DNA from: a virus
Virus record (IMG/VR): IMGVR_UViG_3300025108_000029
Span: 13,151 to 77,150 of that record
DNA length: 64,000 nt
Reading direction: 5' to 3' (one strand)
Shown: piece by piece, positions 6,071 to 18,970 of the stretch
How positions within the stretch are numbered: position 1 is the first letter of the stretch
Layout: the number at the start of each line of letters is the position of its first letter
Translations under genes and position numbers: made by a program
Notes under the pieces: generated by a model
Seen by the model: the letters and a program-made list of their open reading frames with translations, nothing else
The model's database searches: none
What the model was told of the DNA's origin: nothing

Positions 6071-7369
6071 ATGTGGGGTAGTGCAATCGTTGGGGATGTG
6101 TATGATGCACCTGCTATTGTTGGTGATGACTTCACTAAAAGTGTGTACAACACTCTCACTCAACATCCCGATTATGTGCATAAGTCTGTACCGGTCAAAA
6201 AAGAATCAAGTTTATTTTTTAATGAAGAGATAAAATCATATAACTTTCCCAAAAATGGTGATGGTTGGCTTGAGTCAACATACGGTAAAAACGCAGATTC
6301 TATAATTCGTATGTGTCGTAAAATGCGAAGAAACGACAAAAGTAATCGAGATATGATTGATGCTATTATTGATGATGTGAGAACCATAAAAGCAATGGAG
6401 GTTGAAGCAACAATTAACAATTTATCATGGAGTGATGGACTACATGACACTATTCGCTACATGGGGTTAAACGACCGTTCATTAAAATCACTGCGAAAGT
6501 TTGGAGAGTCGAGAAGCACAGGACTTCAACAGGCTTGTCAAATGTTCTTGAAAGCCACATCTGTTCTTTCTATGTTAAATGAAATGGATGATTGGGGTGT
6601 AGAAGAACAAGAAAATTGGGTTGATGCTATGCAGATGCGTAAGGATGCTCAAAAAATGTGGCGTGGAACTTTACATCAAATTGATTCTATTTCAAAAGAC
6701 GATAAAACAACATTAGAGTTTGTTTCAAAACAATTGGATGAAAACGGTGAATTGAATAGTCGTGAAATTGTTCGTCGAGGTGTAGGTGTTCTACACAAGT
6801 CCGTTACGCCCAGTAAAGTCGGTATGTTGATAAAAATGTACGGTGAAGAATTAGACATATACCGAGGGCATAGTCGTGGCATGTTTGTAAAAATGGGTAC
6901 AAACGGTTTGATTATCAAAGACATTTGGGCTTATGCGGCAGGTTTTCTTGATGCTGATGGTAGTATATTTATCAGTGAAAGAGGTGAACCAAGAGCGACA
7001 TTTGTAGCAACTGGTGATAGAGGTAAAGACCAATGCGAAAGTTTGCATAAAGCACTTGGATGTGGTCGTTTAGTCCTTAATCAAAAAATACATAAAAATA
7101 GTAACCGAAGTCTTCACCGTCTTGTTTTTCAATCAAAAGACGATTTACGCCAATTACTCAAAGGTATTCTACCACACTTACAAATGAAATCGCTACAGGC
7201 AAAGGCTGTTTTGACATTCATTGATTCAAAAGACAAGTTGAGAAAAGACGAATTACATAAACTCGTAACCTTCAATAATTGGAAAGATGATAAAAAGAAG
7301 GCCGACAACCTCTTGTCTAAGTGGGGCTTGGATGCTGATACCATAGGTGGATTTGCGGAGGGATTGTAA
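6071..7369 (+). CDS. Protein with C-terminal LAGLIDADG endonuclease domain
   Basis: WAYAAGFLDADGSI motif followed by a typical LAGLIDADG fold (LLKGILPHLQMK..QA). SD GAGGT; stop overlaps portal start. Confidence 0.85.
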   Translation: MWGSAIVGDVYDAPAIVGDDFTKSVYNTLTQHPDYVHKSVPVKKESSLFFNEEIKSYNFPKNGDGWLESTYGKNADSIIRMCRKMRRNDKSNRDMIDAIIDDVRTIKAMEVEATINNLSWSDGLHDTIRYMGLNDRSLKSLRKFGESRSTGLQQACQMFLKATSVLSMLNEMDDWGVEEQENWVDAMQMRKDAQKMWRGTLHQIDSISKDDKTTLEFVSKQLDENGELNSREIVRRGVGVLHKSVTPSKVGMLIKMYGEELDIYRGHSRGMFVKMGTNGLIIKDIWAYAAGFLDADGSIFISERGEPRATFVATGDRGKDQCESLHKALGCGRLVLNQKIHKNSNRSLHRLVFQSKDDLRQLLKGILPHLQMKSLQAKAVLTFIDSKDKLRKDELHKLVTFNNWKDDKKKADNLLSKWGLDADTIGGFAEGL

Positions 7370-9144
7370 TGGCAGACGATGATAGTAGAATAAGTAGATT
7401 TTTAGGCGCACTTGGGAAACCATTCAAGCGTAAGCAATCCCCAACTCCTACCATGCCACTTTGGACAAGTGGTATTCAAGAACCAGTTATGGCGCAAGGA
7501 ATTACCATACCTGCTTTGTATGCTGTAAGCACAGAATGTTTGATTCTAAGAACTGTACTTTCAAAAATACGACAAGAGATGTTCCGAAGAGGACATTATT
7601 TTGAAAAGCGTTTTCATAAAAAATGTAACGATTGCGGTGAAGAATACCAACATGATGTTGAGTCTTGTACTACATGTGGCGGGCAAGTGCGTGACCCCGA
7701 CCATGATGAATTAACTTATGTGAAATGGTTACTCAATCAAGAAAACAGTATGGAACAAGCGTTTATTCATATTCTAAATGAAATTGAAAATGACCTTAAT
7801 ATTGTTGATGATGCGTTCTTAATTTTAGTCAAAGAGTATTATATTGACCCCGAATCGAAAGAAGTAGCGTTTTTCCGTGTTAAAGAACTTATTCGTGGCG
7901 ACCCTATTTTCATGCGTATTGTCGCTGACAAGCGTGGTGTTCGTGGTGGGCGATACAAAGTCTGTCGAATCCATAGGGACCAAGTTAAGACACATGCAGA
8001 AAGTGATACCTGTGAAGTATGCGGTAGCGATTTACATGATGTTCATTATGTCAATATGGCCGGTAGTGGTAAAACACAGTATTTCATTGAAGGTGAAGTG
8101 CTTCACTTGAGTAAATACAATCCGTCTAAACTCTATGGTCGTTCACCTGTCAATACAATGTGGCGACAAGCAATGACACTTACAGCAATGGACAACTACA
8201 TGTACACTTCTTATCAAAAGCGAAGAATGCCAAAAGGTATTATTTCAGTTACGACTGATAACCTTGAGTCAATGAAATCGTTTTGGAAGTCTGTTGATGA
8301 AAAAATGGAGCGTGACCCGCATTACATTCCAAAGGTTGGTATTGAAAGTCAAACAGGCCGTGGTGGTGTCAATTGGATTAAGTTTATGGACACCTTAGAA
8401 GAGATGCAATATATCGCTGTTCGTGATGAAATACGCAATCGCATCGCCGCTTACTTTGGTGTGTCAAGCGTCTTTATGGTTGACAGTGGTAAATCCGGTG
8501 GTTTGAGCAATGAAGGTATGCAAATACTTGTTACAAATCGTGCTGTTGAGTTTGGACAAAAAACTTACACCGAAGTTTTGTTTCCTAAAATGCTGAAACA
8601 AATGGGTGTTCACGATTGGAAACTCACACTTTATCCAAATGAAGAAGAAGACGAAATCACTCGACTACGCCGTGATGAACAAGAACTCAATGTTGCACAG
8701 CGTATGACACAACTTGGATTCACTGCTGATTTAATTGATGGTGAATCAAGTAGCGATATTCGATTCGTCTATCGTAAACCTCCACCTCAACCAGCCGCAC
8801 CTCCGGGCGGCGCACCACCTCCGGGCGGCGCACCACCTCCTATGATGCCACCGGGCGGCGGTATGCCACCGCCTATGATGGGTGGCGGTATGCCAATGGG
8901 TGGCGCACCCATGATGAGAGGTATGCCTCCGGGTATGCCAATGGGTGGTATGCCAATGCCACCACCTCAACCGGGTGGACAGGGTATGGGACTTCGTAAT
9001 AGAGGGCCAGCCGCACCTCAACGCCGTACATCGGCTGGTAGTGGCTCTCCTGTAACAAGTGTACAACAAAGAGGGCCACAGCCCTCAATAGGACAACAAA
9101 ATAGTAACGCTCTCATGAATGCAAGAAACTTCAAGGGTGCATAA
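7369..9144 (+). CDS. Portal protein
   Basis: Position between terminase and protease. Motifs LYGRSP, P.GII and IAAYFGVS resemble HK97-type portals. Two Zn-ribbon inserts and a Pro/Gly/Met tail. Confidence 0.85.
   Translation: MADDDSRISRFLGALGKPFKRKQSPTPTMPLWTSGIQEPVMAQGITIPALYAVSTECLILRTVLSKIRQEMFRRGHYFEKRFHKKCNDCGEEYQHDVESCTTCGGQVRDPDHDELTYVKWLLNQENSMEQAFIHILNEIENDLNIVDDAFLILVKEYYIDPESKEVAFFRVKELIRGDPIFMRIVADKRGVRGGRYKVCRIHRDQVKTHAESDTCEVCGSDLHDVHYVNMAGSGKTQYFIEGEVLHLSKYNPSKLYGRSPVNTMWRQAMTLTAMDNYMYTSYQKRRMPKGIISVTTDNLESMKSFWKSVDEKMERDPHYIPKVGIESQTGRGGVNWIKFMDTLEEMQYIAVRDEIRNRIAAYFGVSSVFMVDSGKSGGLSNEGMQILVTNRAVEFGQKTYTEVLFPKMLKQMGVHDWKLTLYPNEEEDEITRLRRDEQELNVAQRMTQLGFTADLIDGESSSDIRFVYRKPPPQPAAPPGGAPPPGGAPPPMMPPGGGMPPPMMGGGMPMGGAPMMRGMPPGMPMGGMPMPPPQPGGQGMGLRNRGPAAPQRRTSAGSGSPVTSVQQRGPQPSIGQQNSNALMNARNFKGA
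8798..8862 (+). repeat. Imperfect tandem repeat (CCTCCGGGCGGCGCACCA units) encoding PPGGAP
   Basis: Directly visible repeats in the portal low-complexity tail. Confidence 0.8.
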
Positions 9145-9892: not shown

Positions 9893-10366
9893 ATGAAGCC
9901 ACGATTTGAACCAATAAGTTACGAAGTTAAACAAATGCTTGAAAAAGCAGAACGACTAAACAATCGTATAGAATTACTTGAAAAAGCAAAGTGTGATTGT
10001 GGTAAAGAGCCATGTAAATGTAAAGACTGTCCTAAATGTGGTTCTAAAATGAACAAAATGGGTTGCATGAAAATGGGCTGTGGTGGTAAAATGGAAAAGG
10101 CTGACCCTTTGGCTGACCCAAAACCACTTCCAAAAGAAAAAATCACTGATGTAAACCCACACATGGTTACTGAATCCGGTGGACAAACAAAAACTGCTTA
10201 CTATACTACCAACGGTAACACCATTGAATATGAGGATGGTAAACCAAAGCGAGATAAACATGACAAGAAAGTTGACTTAAGTAAACTCGGTGGCCGCATG
10301 AATCCTCATGCTGGTACTGGTGCTGAAAGAGAAGACACAGAAGGCGGAACTGAACGAAAGTATTGA
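9893..10366 (+). CDS. Protein with Cys/Lys-rich internal segment
   Basis: SD GAGGTG; CDCGKEPCKCKDCPKCG..CMKMGC lies between LEKA and MEKA. Confidence 0.75.
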   Translation: MKPRFEPISYEVKQMLEKAERLNNRIELLEKAKCDCGKEPCKCKDCPKCGSKMNKMGCMKMGCGGKMEKADPLADPKPLPKEKITDVNPHMVTESGGQTKTAYYTTNGNTIEYEDGKPKRDKHDKKVDLSKLGGRMNPHAGTGAEREDTEGGTERKY

Positions 10367-10375
10367 GGTGGTTAC

Positions 10376-10546
10376 ATGACAAAGGTAGCCATTAAGAAAG
10401 CAAATCCAAGTTCCTCGATGCGTGAAGAGAGTGAAAGTGGCGCACCTATCGCTTGTCGCACATGTGGGGCTAATGCTCGTGAGGGTTGCAAATTGTATGA
10501 CGGAATGGATATTTTTGCTTGTCCAAAGTTTCAACCGCTATCATAA
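10376..10546 (+). CDS. 56-aa Zn-finger-like protein (not in ORF track)
   Basis: SD GAGGTGG; manual translation MTKVAIKKANPSSSMREESESGAPIACRTCGANAREGCKLYDGMDIFACPKFQPLS. Confidence 0.75.
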   Translation: MTKVAIKKANPSSSMREESESGAPIACRTCGANAREGCKLYDGMDIFACPKFQPLS

Positions 10547-10558
10547 GGCGGTGAAAAT

Positions 10559-13500
10559 ATGGTAGCAGAACAATTCAATATCGCTAAAGACGAATTACTC
10601 CTTTCATTAGCCGATGGTAATGACTTAGCGTTTAGTGCCGCTGAATACATTATTGCTTGGGAATCTCTTAACAAAGCCCCTACAGACACACTTTCAAAGT
10701 CGTTAAAATATACGGCTGAACTAATTCAAAAAGAAGAAGACAAAGCCGCAAAAGTAGAAAAAGTCAAGTCCTATAAAGAAGGTCCGGGTTTTCTTCTTGC
10801 ACATCATCATACTCATGGTGAACAGACAAACCATGTTTGGAAGGACAGTTTATCGGGTGCTGACAATGTGAGAGAATCTCACGCTGTATGGCCTCGGTAT
10901 GTACCTACTTCATCTCATCCATATCGAGAGCATAATTATCCTTTTCACCATACTAATCACCCTCTTTTGCGAATGGACTCAAGTAAAGGTAATGCTGGTT
11001 ATGTTGAAGTTTTACGAAGTCATATTTTTGGCGGTCATTCTAAAGAAGAAGCGCAAATGGAAAAAGAGTTTCAAAAGTATTTAGAAACGAAGAAAAGTCC
11101 ATTGGTACACGGATATAACGGTAAAAAAATCCTCGGCTCGTTGAGACATCATAAATCAAATTATAGCCATCAACATGACCTTTACGAGCGAGATTACCAA
11201 CGCTGGAATAAACTTAACAGTGATTTGAAAGACCAGTATCTCGCTGATGGTCGTTCAGCAGAAGAAACTGAAAATCGTTTACGAGTGGACCATTTTAATC
11301 AAAGAGCAAAGCAGTGGCAAAGCGGCGGGTATGTTGTAGATGAAAACGGTGATAATCATGCTGTTGGATTAGGACAAGAGGGGTATCACCTTGGTCTTGA
11401 ATGGCTTAATCCCGAAGAACGCACAGCCGTAATGCGTCATCTACATGAAAAAGGAGTTGACAATCATAATGAAATAAAGTTACCAAATGGTGAGTTTATC
11501 CCTACGGCTCGATTGACTTGGAACAATTTAATGCGTCGTACACCGGAAAAGAACTGGGCGTTAAGAGCAAGCGGTCACTTTGGCCCAAACGGTCATTTAC
11601 GACAAGAAACACTTGAGGGTGACTTTAGACAAGGTGATAACCGTTTTTCACAAGGTGTAATCGGAGAGGCGGCTCATACTTATGAAATAGGAGGACAACC
11701 AATTTCACATTACATTGCAGAAGCGATACATAATCGCTTTGGGATAGAACTGCCCGATGGTGATAATGAAGGAGTCGGGAAACCATTTGACATTCTACCA
11801 AGACTCGGTTTACATTCAAAGCCGGTTCAAGACAGTTACTCGTTGAAAGACTTACGGGCTGGTACATTTAAACACTATAAAAAATCAAAAGGAATGGACC
11901 CGAAGCATACTCGTATGCCAATGGAGGATGTTCTATTCCTTGCAGGTTATGACCCTAAAACACGAAAGCCGCTTCTTAATCACCCTATATACGGAGAAAT
12001 GGATGGTCCGATTATCCCGCTTCATGACTTAGAACAGATGGAGTCGGAGGCTAAATCTCATGGCTCTTTGTCTTCATTGGCTAAAGAGATGAGAACTGAC
12101 CTCGCTTATTTACAATCTCCGCATGGTCCTCATCCCGATGAAGAAAAACCTAAGTTTTGGCGATTTGATAAGGGTGGTAATCATACTATAGGACCAGCAA
12201 AGTTTTGGAGTAAACCTTTCGCTCAAGTTGGTGGTGCTGATATGACTTTGGCTACTTACAATGAGAATGTACACAGTGTTGCTCATAATGAAGACGAATT
12301 AACAGAAGAAGAAAAAATCGAACAGGCGTATGCAAACATAGCGAGTAATGAGCCTGTGGATATTACCGGTGGGGCGCAAAACGAAGACACTGCACACATC
12401 CCAACTCCGTTTCAACAAAAAAAGAAAGACATGTCATCCCCCTCTACTTCGGGGTTATTTGAAGTAAATGAGCAACATCACGGCCAACTACACCCCAATC
12501 CAATTAACATGGCTTTAGGGATGCACTTTGGGCCGGAGAAATCAAGAGAAATAGGACAAGTTGAAAAACAAAAAGGAGGTGCTACCAAGTTTGTAAGGTT
12601 TCAAGACGGTGATATTCTACAAAATCTATTCTCACCTGCTAATGCCTTTACAAAAACCAGTAGCGGTGATAAGCATAATTGGACATTACATCAATCAACT
12701 TACAACCCTCAACTACTACATTCTCTCCGTACAATGAGTAATGATGAAAAAAAGAAACTTAAAGTTGATACTATTAAACAAACTTTACATTCACATAATC
12801 CATTAAAAACATCTCAACCCGAAAGCACCTATGGAGCGCATACATCGGATGCACCTATTGGTGAGAAAGCAAGAGCAAATCATTGGCGAAAAACAATGTT
12901 GGGGCAAACATTAGACCCCTACAAACCGCAGAAAAACTCGGTTCAACCATTGAAGGACTTAATGAGTGGAAACATTCCTGTAAGTTTTGGAGTGGACCAT
13001 GAGGATTACATGGATTTTTTGGGGTGGGGTGTTAAACAACCCAATTTTAACAATGTAAAAAACTACATTACTTCGCCGGATAGCGCAAAAGCCTTGCGTA
13101 TTTTGACAGCAATAGCAAAAGAAACTGGGAGTAATTCTCCTAATCGTATTCTAAACAACATTAACGATTTGACAGAAGACAACCCAATGTATGCTGATAT
13201 TAAACATCGTATGGAAAAAGAGGGTTCATACCTTAACGACGGGGATATAGACGAACTTAAAGGGTGGTTAAATAGTTTTGAAGTACAATTACGGCAGAAA
13301 AAGGGTAAAGAGGCGGAAGCGAAAAACCAACGCAGTAAAACCAGCATTCAAGCAACAGAAGACACAACATTTACTACAAGAACTATTGACTCCGCATTGA
13401 AGTTTGGTGGTATGCTTCCTGCAATGCAAAAAGAAAAAGAATTGAGTGAGCGATTGAATGTTATTACTGAAATGATACAATACATGGATTCACCGGAACA

Positions 13501-16405
13501 GGTACAATCATTAAGACGGGAATTAGATGAAGGGCAAGTAGAATTGAATAGGTTACAACGCCGTTCAAGTGAATCTGCTCTTGGTAAACAACCTACACGC
13601 TGGAAAACCGATGCTGGTTTTATTGACAAAGTGGCTAAAAATAGTCGTAACGCTGTCCTTGAAGCCGCAAAAAAATTATTACCTATAGTTATGGAACATG
13701 ACCCAAATCATTTTGACATTAACGACCCGGAGAAGTTTATGGCGAATCATAACCGTTTAATGTATGACGCTGAACGGTGGCTTGCAAATGCAGACCATAG
13801 TGTACACGGTATCAAAGCACCTGTTTACAGAACATCGGATGAAAGTAAAACAGTTACTTCAAAGCAAAAAGGCTTTCATCGTGATGTAATGAGTCACATG
13901 CTCGACAACAGTTTTGAATTAAACGGTAACATGACACCCGATGAAGTCTTAGAAGGTATGGGATTAGAAGGTAAGACAAGTCAACAAAAAGCACGATTAA
14001 GAGAACATGTACAAAAAATAATTGATGAGTCAAATGTAAGAGAAGTTCCGTTGCGTGTTGCGACTGTCGGACAGTTAATGACGAGTGGTAATTTTGATGA
14101 CGAGTTTTCACTTCATCGTATTCACGCTGATGAACAATTCGCTCAAGACTATCAAGACGGTGGAATACACACTGCTATTGATAACGCTCAATCGAGAACT
14201 AAAAACTGGAAAGCACATCCTATTCATGGTATAGTAGGTACTGTCGGACAGCATAGATTTGACTCATCGCAATATGGTAGTAATATGTCAAACAACGGTT
14301 TATCCTACTATCCAGCCGGTGGTAAACTCGATGTGCATAACAGATTAGGTGCTGGTAAAGGTGGTAAAAAGCCTTACACGAGAAGAACAAAAAATTACCT
14401 TGATAGTATTGTAAGTTTAGATATTGATGCTGTAAATGCTGATAATATGACACCTACGCAAGAAATTGTGAGAACGCTTGGTATTAACGGTGAACCAGTA
14501 CCTATTGGTGGGGTTAATCCTTCTTCATTCGGAATTATGCCTACACACACTGGTGCTGATGTAGTCCACTCTTCTGCTGTCCCTCAACAGTCATCATTTG
14601 GTATCGAGTTTGATTCTCAAGGACAACCATCGGTCGGTACTTACACTGAACCTCAATTATACCATCCTACTTGGCAAGGTGCATTAGAGGAACTCCACGG
14701 CACAGATATGACAAATCATTTGTTGGAAACATTACCACCACATCAAAATCCTACTCCACCTTTTATGGATTATGACAAAGAAACTTTTGATATATTCGGA
14801 GAAAACAACCCTACTGCTCTTAACTTGAGTGAAATGAGTGAATATATTACTTCTCTTTTAAATCCCGATGTGCTTTTGACAAAAGCCGATGATGCTGAAT
14901 GGTGTCCTCCGGTAAGACCGATGCACCGCATATTCGATTTAAGTGACCTTGAACACCTAAGAGGGTTTAGCGGTTCATGGGTAGTCAGTAAGTGGTACGA
15001 TGGTAAGCGAGTTATTATCGTACAAAACGATAATGAAATCACTACTTATGATGAAAATGGGCGCAAGGTTGGATTAAAGAAAGCATTCAAAGAAAGCCTC
15101 GCTGAATTAAACGACAATAACTTTGTCATTGATGGTATTGTAGGTGAAGAAGACTTGAACATTATTGATATTATCAACTATGATGATACCAATGTTGCTG
15201 AAATGTTAATGCATGAACGCATGAAAGTTCTAAGAGGGCAGTTCGATAGCCATGAAAATGTCATCATTCCCGGCCCGCATGATACAAAAATGACTGATGA
15301 TGAGGGTCTTGAAGACGCTGTTAAAATCCTACAAGAAGACCACGGTATAGTTTTGTTACGAGATAATAAATCCACATACATGAAAGGAGAGCGTCGTCAT
15401 CCTAAGTGGTTGTTATTGCGTGAAAGTCGTGATTTTAACTTTATCATTCTTGACCGTCGAGGTAAAGGACCATACACATATCAACTTGGTGCAGGGCCGA
15501 TTCTTGACGGTGAAGCATTAGGTAATCGTGCCGTCACATACAAGAACAATTTCTACATGGATGTAGGTACAGCCCACAGACAACAAAGAACCTTCAAAGT
15601 TGGCGATATAGTAAGAGCAACTGTAACAGGAGTTACAAAAAAGCGTAGAAAAAATCGAGATGTGTTCAATGTACAAGTGCGTGAAATAGAAAGTGAAGGT
15701 GAAGGTGAAGGTGCGGCCAGTGCTGAATCATTAGACCTTATGACAAAATCGTTTGCACCTTTGCTTATACCCCATGATATAGAATACAATGATGGTGTAT
15801 TACAAGTTATACTCAAAGGTGTAGATACAGTATCGTATCAAGTTACACATATGGATGACAACTGGTATCTACATGACCCTTCTTCGGCTTTAGGTGATTT
15901 GACTAAATCGAATTATTCTCTCACTCTTGCTGAAAGCCTTCATCCGTTTTGGCATTCAGTAGCACCGTTGATGCTTGACGGTCATCTCGTAAAAACAGAA
16001 ATGGATGAAAAGAAAGTGCCAAGTCGTAAAAGACAAGAAGAACAATCAGCCGGAGTTCTTGATGCTAAAGACGATAACCGCCTTCTTAAACCATCAACTA
16101 AGAAGGCTCTTGATGTAATTAGTCGTGCTTTAGACAGACTCGCTAAAGAAAAACTTACTTGGACAGGGCCGAAAGGTTTGGGTATTGACATGGCTACACC
16201 GGTAGAATCACCAAGTGGTCCTACGAGATTAACAGAAGAAAGTAACTTACCCGACTATGATGGTAAAGTAAGACCGGATGAAAAGGATGGTGTTGATTCG
16301 GATGATAAAAAGAAAAAACCCATTACGCATGTTGAAATGAAGACTGATGCAGACGAGTCTATCGTTTTAGATGATGAAGACGGTACTCCTACTCTTTCAG
16401 TGTGA
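10559..16405 (+). CDS. 1948-aa multidomain head-module protein with C-terminal ATP-dependent DNA ligase-like (NTase + OB) domain
   Basis: From about 14890: SKWYDGKR, FVIDG, NIIDII, GIVLLR, YMKGERRHPKWL in ligase motif order, then an OB-like region (MDVGT, KVGDIV). The N-terminal ~1440 aa are unrecognised. Confidence 0.8.
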   Translation: MVAEQFNIAKDELLLSLADGNDLAFSAAEYIIAWESLNKAPTDTLSKSLKYTAELIQKEEDKAAKVEKVKSYKEGPGFLLAHHHTHGEQTNHVWKDSLSGADNVRESHAVWPRYVPTSSHPYREHNYPFHHTNHPLLRMDSSKGNAGYVEVLRSHIFGGHSKEEAQMEKEFQKYLETKKSPLVHGYNGKKILGSLRHHKSNYSHQHDLYERDYQRWNKLNSDLKDQYLADGRSAEETENRLRVDHFNQRAKQWQSGGYVVDENGDNHAVGLGQEGYHLGLEWLNPEERTAVMRHLHEKGVDNHNEIKLPNGEFIPTARLTWNNLMRRTPEKNWALRASGHFGPNGHLRQETLEGDFRQGDNRFSQGVIGEAAHTYEIGGQPISHYIAEAIHNRFGIELPDGDNEGVGKPFDILPRLGLHSKPVQDSYSLKDLRAGTFKHYKKSKGMDPKHTRMPMEDVLFLAGYDPKTRKPLLNHPIYGEMDGPIIPLHDLEQMESEAKSHGSLSSLAKEMRTDLAYLQSPHGPHPDEEKPKFWRFDKGGNHTIGPAKFWSKPFAQVGGADMTLATYNENVHSVAHNEDELTEEEKIEQAYANIASNEPVDITGGAQNEDTAHIPTPFQQKKKDMSSPSTSGLFEVNEQHHGQLHPNPINMALGMHFGPEKSREIGQVEKQKGGATKFVRFQDGDILQNLFSPANAFTKTSSGDKHNWTLHQSTYNPQLLHSLRTMSNDEKKKLKVDTIKQTLHSHNPLKTSQPESTYGAHTSDAPIGEKARANHWRKTMLGQTLDPYKPQKNSVQPLKDLMSGNIPVSFGVDHEDYMDFLGWGVKQPNFNNVKNYITSPDSAKALRILTAIAKETGSNSPNRILNNINDLTEDNPMYADIKHRMEKEGSYLNDGDIDELKGWLNSFEVQLRQKKGKEAEAKNQRSKTSIQATEDTTFTTRTIDSALKFGGMLPAMQKEKELSERLNVITEMIQYMDSPEQVQSLRRELDEGQVELNRLQRRSSESALGKQPTRWKTDAGFIDKVAKNSRNAVLEAAKKLLPIVMEHDPNHFDINDPEKFMANHNRLMYDAERWLANADHSVHGIKAPVYRTSDESKTVTSKQKGFHRDVMSHMLDNSFELNGNMTPDEVLEGMGLEGKTSQQKARLREHVQKIIDESNVREVPLRVATVGQLMTSGNFDDEFSLHRIHADEQFAQDYQDGGIHTAIDNAQSRTKNWKAHPIHGIVGTVGQHRFDSSQYGSNMSNNGLSYYPAGGKLDVHNRLGAGKGGKKPYTRRTKNYLDSIVSLDIDAVNADNMTPTQEIVRTLGINGEPVPIGGVNPSSFGIMPTHTGADVVHSSAVPQQSSFGIEFDSQGQPSVGTYTEPQLYHPTWQGALEELHGTDMTNHLLETLPPHQNPTPPFMDYDKETFDIFGENNPTALNLSEMSEYITSLLNPDVLLTKADDAEWCPPVRPMHRIFDLSDLEHLRGFSGSWVVSKWYDGKRVIIVQNDNEITTYDENGRKVGLKKAFKESLAELNDNNFVIDGIVGEEDLNIIDIINYDDTNVAEMLMHERMKVLRGQFDSHENVIIPGPHDTKMTDDEGLEDAVKILQEDHGIVLLRDNKSTYMKGERRHPKWLLLRESRDFNFIILDRRGKGPYTYQLGAGPILDGEALGNRAVTYKNNFYMDVGTAHRQQRTFKVGDIVRATVTGVTKKRRKNRDVFNVQVREIESEGEGEGAASAESLDLMTKSFAPLLIPHDIEYNDGVLQVILKGVDTVSYQVTHMDDNWYLHDPSSALGDLTKSNYSLTLAESLHPFWHSVAPLMLDGHLVKTEMDEKKVPSRKRQEEQSAGVLDAKDDNRLLKPSTKKALDVISRALDRLAKEKLTWTGPKGLGIDMATPVESPSGPTRLTEESNLPDYDGKVRPDEKDGVDSDDKKKKPITHVEMKTDADESIVLDDEDGTPTLSV

Positions 16406-16413
16406 AAGAAACA

Positions 16414-16424
16414 TTCTATATACC
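16414..16424 (+). promoter_or_regulatory. Possible archaeal TATA box upstream of the protease/capsid operon
   Basis: TTCTATATAC, preceded by purine-rich AAAGAAAC, about 24 nt before ATG 16446. Confidence 0.35.
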
Positions 16425-16445
16425 ATGACAATGAATCGGAGGGTA

Positions 16446-17837
16446 ATGTTGTCCTTAAAGCGACCCACCTCCGGCATTGCTCTCATTAAGGGCAGTTCCG
16501 ATATGGTTATCGCTGGCTACGCATCAGTTGAACTGGTGGACAAGCAAGGCGACCTTATTACTCGTTCAGCACTAAAGGATGCATTTGGCGGATTCATGAA
16601 GAGTGAGAAGTTCCGTAATGTTCAACTCGCTCACTCAAATATTCAAGTTGGAGAAGTTATTGACTCCTATGTAGATTCAAATGGTCGGATGTGGAAGTCC
16701 GAAGTTGATGATGCCGGTATGTTTGTCGTTGTTTCACTTCGCAACGATATTGAAAAGGCTCGTGAAGTGGCCGCAGAAATCCGTAAAGGTAATCTGCAAG
16801 GATTTTCCATCGGTGGACAAGCATTCAAGAGAGTGCGAAAATCGGATGGGGAACATGGAGACTACCAAGAAATTAGTAAAATGGAACTGCACGAAATAAC
16901 GATATGTGAAAAAGGGATTAACCCCGAAGCGCAGTTTCGTATTTTAAAGGAGGACACCCACATGACAACAGAAAATGATTTGAATAATGTAATGAGCAGA
17001 CTTGAAGCACGACTTGACGCTATGGAAAAAGGCGAAATGCCTCCCGGCCTTAAGGAACATATGAACGATAAAAAAGACGATTCCGACGATGAAAAGAAGG
17101 AAAACCCATTCGCCGCAAAAAAAGACGAAGAAAAGGATGACGAGGATATGAAAGACGACAAAATGTATGCAAAGAGCGAGTACAGTGATGTAATTACTGC
17201 TGAATACCTAAACTGGATGGAGGACACTCTCAAATCCGCTGGTGTTGACACTATGCAAGCACGAACACACTTCGATAATTTGGAAAAGGCGCAACTTGGC
17301 GGCTTCGACAACCCCGATGCTGTTGATGGTGCTGACTACTTCGCCGGACAAGTCCGAGGTCGAGGTCAAGAAAACGGTTCACCTTCAACCGGTGCAATCT
17401 CCGCAATCTCTTCAACTGGTGGTAAAACACCATCCGGCGCACTTGGGCCTGTTTCAATGGCTAAGGGTTACATTAACCCAAGCAATGTTTCAGCATCCGA
17501 TGTTGAAGCCGCTTACGAAGTTTACAAAGCCGCCGCAATGGAACAAGGATTCCGTGGCGACCTTGAATCTCAATTCGCATCTCGCTTTGCAGAAGAACAA
17601 AAAATTGCAAAGCATGAAGCAGAAAAAGCCGAGTTCGACGCTCGTGCGCCTCTTAACGAAGTCATGAAGTCAATTAACGCACTAAGTGAGCGTATTGATA
17701 ACATTGGTATTCAAGGAACATCAATTCAAAAGTCGGCTTCTTCATCTAATGTTGAAGTCCCATCCACACAAGACTTGAGTAACATGTCTTGGGATGAAGT
17801 ACACAATCTCGCCGGTTCGGTCATTCGAGGGGCTTGA
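16446..17837 (+). CDS. Prohead protease (HK97-type) fused to scaffold
   Basis: IAGYASVELVDKQGD, catalytic-type H (LAHS), GFSIGG, EITIC..GINPEA, followed by an acidic/coiled-coil scaffold region. SD GGAGGGT before ATG 16446. Confidence 0.9.
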   Translation: MLSLKRPTSGIALIKGSSDMVIAGYASVELVDKQGDLITRSALKDAFGGFMKSEKFRNVQLAHSNIQVGEVIDSYVDSNGRMWKSEVDDAGMFVVVSLRNDIEKAREVAAEIRKGNLQGFSIGGQAFKRVRKSDGEHGDYQEISKMELHEITICEKGINPEAQFRILKEDTHMTTENDLNNVMSRLEARLDAMEKGEMPPGLKEHMNDKKDDSDDEKKENPFAAKKDEEKDDEDMKDDKMYAKSEYSDVITAEYLNWMEDTLKSAGVDTMQARTHFDNLEKAQLGGFDNPDAVDGADYFAGQVRGRGQENGSPSTGAISAISSTGGKTPSGALGPVSMAKGYINPSNVSASDVEAAYEVYKAAAMEQGFRGDLESQFASRFAEEQKIAKHEAEKAEFDARAPLNEVMKSINALSERIDNIGIQGTSIQKSASSSNVEVPSTQDLSNMSWDEVHNLAGSVIRGA

Positions 17838-17869
17838 AAATAAAAAAAAAATAATGGAGAGTGAAATAT

Positions 17870-18970
17870 ATGGCACGAGACTACATACGAAGCGTAACTG
17901 ACATGGAACGGTACTTTTACGGTGCTGGTAATGCAATGGGATATTCCTACAGCGGTAGCGAATTGCTCAAGGCTGACAGCCCAATGATGAGTACTACAGC
18001 AGGAACTTACCAAGCGATTTATGGTCGCAAGGTTTGGTCGCAATTGAACCAAGAGTTCAATGCATTCTCAATTCTACCAAAGCGACCTTGGGAACGCAGT
18101 GGATGGCGAGTCATCACTGAACGACCTTCGTTCAGCGTTGGTGGCGGTGTTGCAGAAAACGCAACTCTACCGGACACTACCAAGCCTACCTTCCAACACA
18201 TTGCCGCAAAGCCAAAGACGATTGTTCACACATTCGACATGAGCGAAACCGCAATGTTCCTTGCTGACAAGGATGACGGACTGGGTGACATTCGCTCAAT
18301 CCTCAAAGAAGAAATGGGTAAGCACCACGCCGAGCATATCAATAAAATGTTGCTCGTTGACAAGGCTACCGTTGCTGGAAACGATTTCGAGTCTCTTGAC
18401 CGTATCGCTACTGGCCTCGTTGCTGGTTCAGCAGAAGACATCTACTCGATTGACCGAAGTGAAAACTCTTGGTCTGTTGCAGAAGAAGACTCCAACGGTG
18501 GTACTGACAGAACTCTTTCTCTCGACCACTTGGACAGTATTTTCCAAAAGTGTTGGACTCGTGGTGGTAATCCAAAGGTTATCCTCACTGGATATGACAC
18601 TTTGATGCGCCTTCAACAACTTCTACAATCGCAACAGCGTTTCATGGAAGAAAAGCGTATCACCCCTACCTACAATGGTGTTAAGGGTGTACCGGGAATT
18701 GAAGCAGGATTTATCGTTGCTACTTACAACGGTGTTCCTATCATCCCATCTAAGGATGTTCAAGCAGACACATTGAGCCGTATGTATTTCCTCGACACGG
18801 ATTACCTCTACTTCTCTACTGCTATCCCAACGCAATACTTTGAGTCCGGTATCGAAACCGGCGACCCATTCGCAATCAACCGTCTTGGACAAGAAGGAAT
18901 GTATCGAACTATGGGAGAACTATGGACTACTTTCTTCGGAGGACACGCTTCAATTCGTGACCTAAAGTGA
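17870..18970 (+). CDS. Major capsid protein (HK97 fold)
   Basis: Follows protease; ~366 aa; GGVAENATLP and YNGVPIIPS motifs typical of archaeal tailed-virus MCPs; strong leader. Confidence 0.9.
   Translation: MARDYIRSVTDMERYFYGAGNAMGYSYSGSELLKADSPMMSTTAGTYQAIYGRKVWSQLNQEFNAFSILPKRPWERSGWRVITERPSFSVGGGVAENATLPDTTKPTFQHIAAKPKTIVHTFDMSETAMFLADKDDGLGDIRSILKEEMGKHHAEHINKMLLVDKATVAGNDFESLDRIATGLVAGSAEDIYSIDRSENSWSVAEEDSNGGTDRTLSLDHLDSIFQKCWTRGGNPKVILTGYDTLMRLQQLLQSQQRFMEEKRITPTYNGVKGVPGIEAGFIVATYNGVPIIPSKDVQADTLSRMYFLDTDYLYFSTAIPTQYFESGIETGDPFAINRLGQEGMYRTMGELWTTFFGGHASIRDLK

Follow-up and report, generated by a model that had tools for sequence, protein, structure and literature searches.

What does a DNA ligase fold do in the head gene module of a virus, directly upstream of the prohead protease, and can it still ligate? 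The question is raised by a 64,000-nucleotide stretch of viral DNA (positions 13,151 to 77,150 of the IMG/VR record IMGVR_UViG_3300025108_000029; hereafter the window, in whose numbering coordinates are given unless another locus is named), in which a single open reading frame (ORF) encodes a protein of 1948 amino acids (aa). A sequence-only reading of the window had pointed out positions 14867-15760, i.e. aa 1437-1734 of this protein, as a ligase fold with degenerate catalytic motifs. An ATP-dependent DNA ligase in the structural module of magroviruses was reported by Philosof et al. 2017 (PMC5434244); the passages of that paper on the gene treat it as a ligase and contain no remark on lost catalytic residues. 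In the later papers searched on magroviruses and archaeal viruses, the ligase passages list a replication or RNA-repair gene only, and none of these passages deals with the structural-module copy. That the gene is present was already known; that it encodes a pseudo-enzyme appears to be a new finding. We find that the domain is a pseudo-ligase which should not be annotated as a DNA ligase. The sequence-only reading had warned that an automatic label of this kind would mislead, and the passages cited do call the gene an ATP-dependent DNA ligase. On balance, the evidence favors a ligase fold that is conserved but non-catalytic and has a role associated with the head.

The domain has the fold of an ATP-dependent DNA ligase

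The protein, its ligase-like domains and the remnants of the ligase motifs are located as follows.

10559-16405, plus strand: 1948-aa head-module protein with ligase-fold domain, single open frame
14891-15433, plus strand: nucleotidyltransferase (NTase; adenylation) domain, catalytically degenerate; model residues 8-189 lie on residues 533-750 of human LIG1 (2.2-2.5 A, Z ~20)
15434-15697, plus strand: OB-fold domain lacking motif VI (no RxDK); model residues 190-277 are matched with the OB domains of 2cfm, 4eq5 and 3gde
14987-15010, plus strand: motif I remnant S-K-W-Y-D-G-K-R (S1477-R1484), with W1479 at the position of the adenylated Lys in HMMER alignments
15122-15142, plus strand: motif III remnant F-V-I-D-G-I-V, Glu replaced by Ile (I1527); D1525 is invariant and the Glu column is I, V or L in the dead clade
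15155-15175, plus strand: motif IIIa L-N-I-I-D-I-I, D1537 invariant
15341-15364, plus strand: motif IV remnant H-G-I-V-L-L-R-D, aligned to H-E-G-L-M-A-K-R of 4eq5; Lys replaced by R1601, D1602 invariant
15404-15421, plus strand: motif V remnant K-W-L-L-L-R, aligned to KWLKIK or KWVKWK; first Lys replaced by Leu, second by R1621

Residues 1445-1713 form a ligase NTase plus OB module. The AlphaFold2 model of the domain, built with the family alignment, reached a predicted local distance difference test score (pLDDT) of 89.6 and a predicted template modelling score of 0.84. When it was compared with known structures, archaeal and human ATP-dependent ligases took the top ranks in Foldseek (probability 1.0, E 3e-13), and VIA-align superposed 267 residues on residues 217-556 (adenylation and OB domains) of the P. 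furiosus ligase 2cfm with a Z of 22.8. A profile of 30 family members matched nine solved ATP-dependent ligases (best E 3e-11), and a phmmer search of the PDB found the T. sibiricus ligase 4eq5, with W1479 aligned to the Lys of KYDG. The Pfam family PF01068 stayed below threshold (23.6 bits vs. a cut-off of 26.2) and covered profile positions 120-201 only, which is its C-terminal half. We regard the predicted fold as solid, as AlphaFold2, Foldseek and VIA-align all place the domain among ligases, where the sequence-only reading had put it.

Compared with the ATP-dependent DNA ligases 2cfm, 4eq5 and human LIG1, the domain has the same NTase-OB architecture (Z 19-23) with the motif order I, III, IIIa, IV, V still recognizable. 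However, identity is only 15-18%, the catalytic residues are replaced and motif VI is missing. In addition, the NTase is adjoined not by a DNA-binding domain of the ligase type but by a low-confidence linker of ~150 aa, as seen in an AlphaFold2 model of aa 1150-1734.

14006-14443, plus strand: helical domain, aa 1150-1295, helices with pLDDT 60-89
14447-14896, plus strand: low-confidence linker, aa 1297-1446, leading into the domain and probably flexible, pLDDT mostly <50

In this larger model, residues 148-201, 212-223 and 246-297 have a pLDDT <50, as do residues 1-10 of the domain model. A ligase-type DNA-binding domain was not seen directly upstream of the NTase; the helical domain, ~150 aa away behind the linker, was not searched separately. 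The only Cys of the entire 1948-aa protein lies inside the ligase-fold domain.

Loss of the catalytic residues

The motif strings of the sequence-only reading could be verified in the ORF, with SKWYDGKR at 14987-15010, and its interpretation of IDGI (motif III), HGIVLLR (motif IV) and KWLLLR (motif V) as substituted motifs agrees with the alignments to PDB ligases, in which IDGI faces EGE or DGE. It had also proposed that a Trp takes the place of the Lys in KxDG; both the HMMER alignment to 4eq5 and the family profile put W1479 there. In the profile-to-PDB alignments, kpeGkR corresponds to KYDGAR, vlDail to vEGEL and hiiDil to LFDIL, and the profile stretch evlLRDakSTYmkGekrHPKWvllk, which spans motifs IV to V, was matched to PDB ligases as well.

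HMMER, run exhaustively over 1.84 billion cluster representatives, found only 163 relatives. In most of the complete ones, the domain lies within the last quarter of a protein of ~1600-2500 aa, and many shorter matches resemble gene fragments. In 121 closer homologs, the column of the catalytic Lys is occupied by W (98), F (15), Y (5) or I (3). G1482, R1484 and D1525 are invariant in this set, the residue at the motif III Glu is I, V or L, the motif IV Lys has become Arg in 117 members, and motif V reads K-W-x-x-x-R, with neither Lys kept. More distant members have M, L, H or Q in the catalytic column, and altogether W, F, Y, M, L, I, H or Q is found there in 99 of 112 representatives. At the two lysine positions of motif V, the degenerate clade as a whole has L and a variable residue, the Arg being restricted to the window's lineage.

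In a maximum-likelihood tree of the 112 representatives, with two replicative ligases of related viruses as the root, the head-module family forms a monophyletic group (support 100). One clade of 104 representatives (support 100, stem 0.81) lacks the residues of motifs III, IV and V, and a small sister clade keeps motifs I, III, IIIa, IV and V. Within the clade of 104, Lys at the catalytic column occurs only in a nested long-branch subclade, which varies between K, R and M. The clade has also lost ~30 aa between motifs III and IIIa relative to its canonical relatives. Motif VI (RxDK) is absent from every head-module member, canonical or not, and present in the replicative ligases of two complete genomes of related viruses (G002, G005).

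The substitutions are thus conserved across a clade of 104 representatives, a comparison that the sequence-only reading had suggested. Judged from alignments and tree, the catalytic residues were lost once, long ago, at the base of this large clade. As the Lys nucleophile, the motif III Glu, the motif IV Lys and the motif V lysines are missing across it, and motif VI too, sequence, fold and phylogeny all indicate that the domain is very probably dead for adenylylation and ligation, as first proposed.

One distant metagenomic relative has a different architecture: P0253 (1079 aa) carries a metallo-beta-lactamase-fold domain (PF12706, E 8e-13) fused to the ligase domain. Most canonical motifs are intact in its ligase domain, but the branch of P0253 is long and its position in the family uncertain.

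Selection on the degenerate domain

Across 144 full-length homologs, conservation along the protein peaks in the ligase-fold domain, where majority identity is 0.55-0.85 vs. 0-0.5 for residues 1-1420. When each homolog was compared with the window's protein, the domain gave a higher identity than the N-terminal region in all 143 cases, with medians of 0.53 (domain), 0.17 (N-terminal region) and 0.37 (C-terminal region), values that are inflated in absolute terms because the homologs were retrieved through the domain, while the contrast within each protein is independent of this. Among the invariant residues outside the ligase motifs, many of which are clade-specific, are PMHRIF, GFSG.W, STYM.GE.RHPKW (with GERRHPKW) and Y.LG.GP. 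The Arg, His and Lys residues R1457, R1484, R1554, R1559, R1601, R1613, H1614 and K1616 are likewise invariant, or in the case of R1601 nearly so. Because so many non-motif residues are invariant, the alignments identify the dead domain as being under strong purifying selection and maintained for a non-catalytic job, not as the remnant of a decaying pseudogene. Since the catalytic residues are lost, yet the fold is kept under such selection, its most likely mode of action is binding, not catalysis.

A second conserved block is found near the C-terminus of the protein.

16076-16258, plus strand: conserved block, aa 1840-1900, majority identity 0.59-0.70, with invariant SP.GPT.L and PD motifs

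Apart from the weak PF01068 match, no Pfam or PHROG family was detected in the 1948-aa protein; a Pfam Intein_splicing match (E 0.1) was dismissed as noise. Searches of a phage collection with tblastn gave no match for either the domain or the whole protein, and the N- and C-terminal parts found no usable match in the protein atlas. The region of aa 1-580 (10559-12298) is rich in His (6.9%), with runs such as HHHTHG and FHHTNH.

Position in the head module and related viruses

The neighboring genes establish the genomic context of the protein.

7369-9144, plus strand: portal protein (PF04860 and phrog_18178, E 2e-66)
16371-17837, plus strand: prohead serine protease (S78) with a long C-terminal extension (PF04586, E 1.6e-9; phrog_23555)
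17861-18970, plus strand: HK97/SU10-type major capsid protein (phrog_24667, E 2e-60), 37% identical to the HVTV-1 capsid protein

The gene order is portal, 1948-aa ORF, S78 prohead protease and capsid protein, so that the ORF indeed lies directly before the protease gene, as had been noted at the outset. Counted from its first ATG, the protease ORF overlaps the end of the 1948-aa ORF by 35 nucleotides in another frame (16371-16405).

The source record is a contig of 77 kb with an estimated completeness of 72%. Its capsid protein is nearest to those of the haloarchaeal siphoviruses HVTV-1 and HCTV (34-37% identity). There are 245 homologs of the 1948-aa protein, nearly all of 1700-2500 aa, and the large-protein homologs come from marine metagenomes, on contigs of up to ~115 kb. 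Because of the HVTV-1/HCTV-like capsid protein, the marine metagenomic homologs and the contig sizes, the virus fits a magrovirus-like marine archaeal tailed virus. Magroviruses are tailed viruses of Marine Group II archaea and rank among the most abundant archaeal viruses in the surface ocean.

Three diverged virus types, represented by the window, L012 and L171, share the order terminase, portal, ligase-fold protein, S78 protease and capsid protein. The type that corresponds to the sister clade with canonical motifs has proteins of 700-940 aa at the same locus, e.g. P0224 (PF01068, E 1e-28), in viral genomes of ~95 kb with terminal repeats. In L012, genes of 794 and 214 aa lie between the portal gene and that of the 912-aa ligase protein (10001-12739). 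The third type, P0226-like (~1160 aa, L171), has the same synteny and also lacks the residues of motifs III, IV and V. The window's domain matches P0224-P0230 with phmmer E values of 1e-22 to 1e-25, and the ligase domain is all that is detectably shared between the virus types. We also considered whether the 1948-aa protein is a fusion of canonical-type genes of 794, 214 and 912 aa; this was rejected, as BLASTP found the ligase domain alone in common.

The canonical head-module ligases P0224, P0225, P0227, P0229 and P0230 have motifs I-V intact and an OB domain without motif VI, and their activity may, by their sequence, be unusual. The canonical-type complete genomes G002 and G005 contain two PF01068 genes, namely the head-module copy and a replicative ligase of 516-521 aa. 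Because these viruses carry a separate replicative ligase, the head-module copy is not their replication enzyme.

The magrovirus structural-module ligase of Philosof et al. (PMC5434244) belongs to the same gene class and has the same position as the window's gene, and the window's domain is homologous to canonical members such as P0224 (E ~1e-25). In contrast to these, the window's clade has neither the Lys nucleophile nor the key residues of motifs III, IV and V, shows the ~30-aa deletion, and has proteins of ~1900 aa instead of 700-940 aa.

The invariant synteny between portal and protease suggests that the product is probably associated with the virion or prohead. Large multi-domain cargo proteins that are packaged into the head ('polyvalent' or MuF-fused proteins) have been described for tailed phages (PMC9503650). 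The window's protein is likewise large and multi-domain, is encoded beside portal and protease genes and contains an enzyme-derived domain. It differs from them in having no detected MuF or known packaging anchor and an inactive effector domain. HVTV-1 encodes proteins of 1048 aa and 1313 aa (the latter annotated 'zeta toxin') at an analogous place: together with a 'head assembly' gene, they are found in the head module upstream of the prohead protease (L001, 64229-72563). Large enzyme-derived head-module proteins may be a general trait of this virus lineage.

Candidate cleavage sites around the domain

The domain had been described as bracketed by three putative Lys cleavage sites. Two of these stand up to comparison, LLTK|A (K1442) and LMTK|S (K1730); the third, LTK|SN (K1783), was rejected because it is not conserved. 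A similar candidate site is present in the capsid protein.

14867-14884, plus strand: candidate protease site in the N-flank, D-V-L-L-T-K (K1442); 97% of 144 full-length homologs have the K
15719-15751, plus strand: candidate protease site in the C-flank, S-A-E-S-L-D-L-M-T-K-S (K1730); 100% of the 144 homologs have the K
17960-17977, plus strand: E-L-L-K-A-D in the N-terminus of the capsid protein, candidate propeptide site in a conserved [LIM][LM]K island

In the same 144 homologs, the K1442 site has a hydrophobic residue at P4 in 88% and at P3 in 99%, and the K1730 site has hydrophobic residues at P4 and P3 in 99-100% and A, S or G at P1' in 98%. K1442 is nearly invariant even in an alignment that includes the canonical-motif relatives. 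Within the 1948 aa, K1442 and K1730 are the only conserved lysines with hydrophobic P4/P3 and a small P1', and they bracket the fold. The ten residues around K1442 and much of the preceding ~150 have a pLDDT <50.

The [LIM][LM]K island of the capsid protein lies ~30-36 residues in and is conserved in both virus types. By eye, GGMSK-ADNLL of the HVTV-1 capsid protein is at the place that matches the window's SELLK-ADSPM, and the capsid alignment spans it. Virion proteomics of HVTV-1 or an N-terminal sequence of its capsid protein was not found in the literature searched. These sequence features are consistent with a Lys-specific maturation protease that would trim the capsid protein and excise the domain. 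That the S78 prohead protease excises the domain at the conserved hydrophobic-hydrophobic-x-Lys sites has, in our estimation, slightly less than an even chance of being correct.

A repeated linker occurs in another protein of this genome. Before the window, a 705-aa protein (L196, 5630-7747, plus strand) contains three copies of the 15-aa linker [FY][RK][SG]E[PL]MD[IL][TA]M[RQ]LLK between unrelated modules, and the adjoining ORF on the minus strand (L196, 4096-5568) carries a related SQPMDLAWQMLFK. In its E-x-[LM]-D-[LI]...K shape, this linker is similar to the flank ESLDLMTK next to the ligase fold, and it may represent a boundary or processing element that recurs.

Possible functions of the domain

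The following course of events would account for a conserved, non-catalytic ligase fold in the head module. A ligase would first have joined this module in an ancestral virus, where it presumably served as an enzyme associated with the virion, given that replication has a ligase gene of its own. On the way to the window's clade, the residues for ligase-AMP formation and nick sealing were lost once, and the retained fold became the conserved core of a giant (~1900 aa), otherwise fast-evolving protein. The simplest function that it could then have is to bind DNA nicks or ends, or perhaps a nucleotide, either within the capsid or during entry, a role that we propose tentatively. A more specific scenario is that the domain is excised from a packaged polyprotein, enters the host with the linear, terminally repetitive genome and clamps nicks or ends without sealing them, thus shielding the ends from host nucleases or holding them together; its ancestor would be an active, injected ligase of the kind still present in the sister clade. 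Taken as a whole, this scenario is rather unlikely.

Several observations weigh against a dead domain that is packaged and excised. The pocket residues G1482, R1484, D1525, D1537 and D1602 are retained. The complete 107.6-kb genome of the window's type (G001, which holds L100 and has terminal repeats) contains only the degenerate copy and is otherwise negative for PF01068, PF09414 and PF01653; because this relative shows no other recognizable ligase, a non-canonical activity is conceivable. No MuF or other known capsid-targeting domain was found in the Pfam, PHROG and protein atlas searches. As for the candidate cleavage sites, K1730 is lost in distant members of 2000-2500 aa and is modelled inside a helix by AlphaFold2, the protein shows no enrichment of the hydrophobic-x-K-[ASG] pattern (7 observed vs. 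5.6 expected from shuffles), and the registers differ between the flanks of the ligase fold (LLxK) and the capsid protein (LLK). The flanking motifs could simply belong to the fold.

The lack of enrichment and the variability of K1730 in distant members would also be expected if the protein acted solely in the infected cell during head assembly or DNA packaging, e.g. by holding DNA or the portal, and were neither cleaved nor delivered. Morphogenetic factors are just as typically encoded between portal and protease. However, the size of ~1900 aa, the fast-evolving N-terminus and the long disordered linkers are more like those of packaged multi-domain cargo than of assembly chaperones, and K1442 is conserved even in the clade with canonical motifs. 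We consider such an assembly-only factor unlikely, at roughly one chance in a handful or slightly better.

The retained pocket bears on another explanation, namely that the domain is a nucleotide-binding sensor or sponge which holds ATP, NAD or a signalling nucleotide without transferring it, for example to blunt a nucleotide-based defence of the host after injection. The pocket is partly invariant (G1482, R1484, D1525, D1537 and R1601/D1602), and nucleotide-processing domains packaged into heads have been described for phages (PMC9503650). On the other hand, the ribose-contacting Glu and the phosphate-contacting lysines are lost, and the motif IIIa aromatic residue is Ile in the window's lineage, which makes this explanation quite improbable.

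An active ligase or adenylyltransferase with a relocated nucleophile, which could be K1478 (the Lys 'shifted by one' of the sequence-only reading, which had considered a 'rewired' enzyme) or another conserved Lys such as K1556 or K1616, would fit the retention of G1482, R1484, D1525 and D1537, the lack of another ligase in the complete relative genome and the presence of K1478 in 90 of the 121 close homologs, but it is highly improbable. K1478 occurs in the window's own subclade alone, all other subclades having A, S, T, H, V, L or I there; the Glu of motif III, both lysines of motif V and the whole of motif VI are missing; and K1616 and K1556 are just as conserved in canonical ligases without serving as nucleophiles there. 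The shifted-Lys form of rewiring was rejected because K1478 is specific to one subclade.

Implications

The 'second ligase' in the head module of magroviruses has been an unexplained curiosity since 2017. With the conserved non-catalytic fold described here, the gene is seen to exist in two states: either NTase motifs I-V are kept, or the domain is long dead and yet the slowest-evolving part of a giant head-module protein. The question thereby shifts from why these viruses should have a second ligase to what a ligase fold does in or near the capsid without ligating. The two states provide a natural pair of putatively active and inactive forms for experiments, and recognizing them corrects an annotation that pipelines would otherwise propagate. 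If packaging proves true, a nucleic acid repair fold would have been recruited as non-catalytic virion cargo in archaeal viruses.

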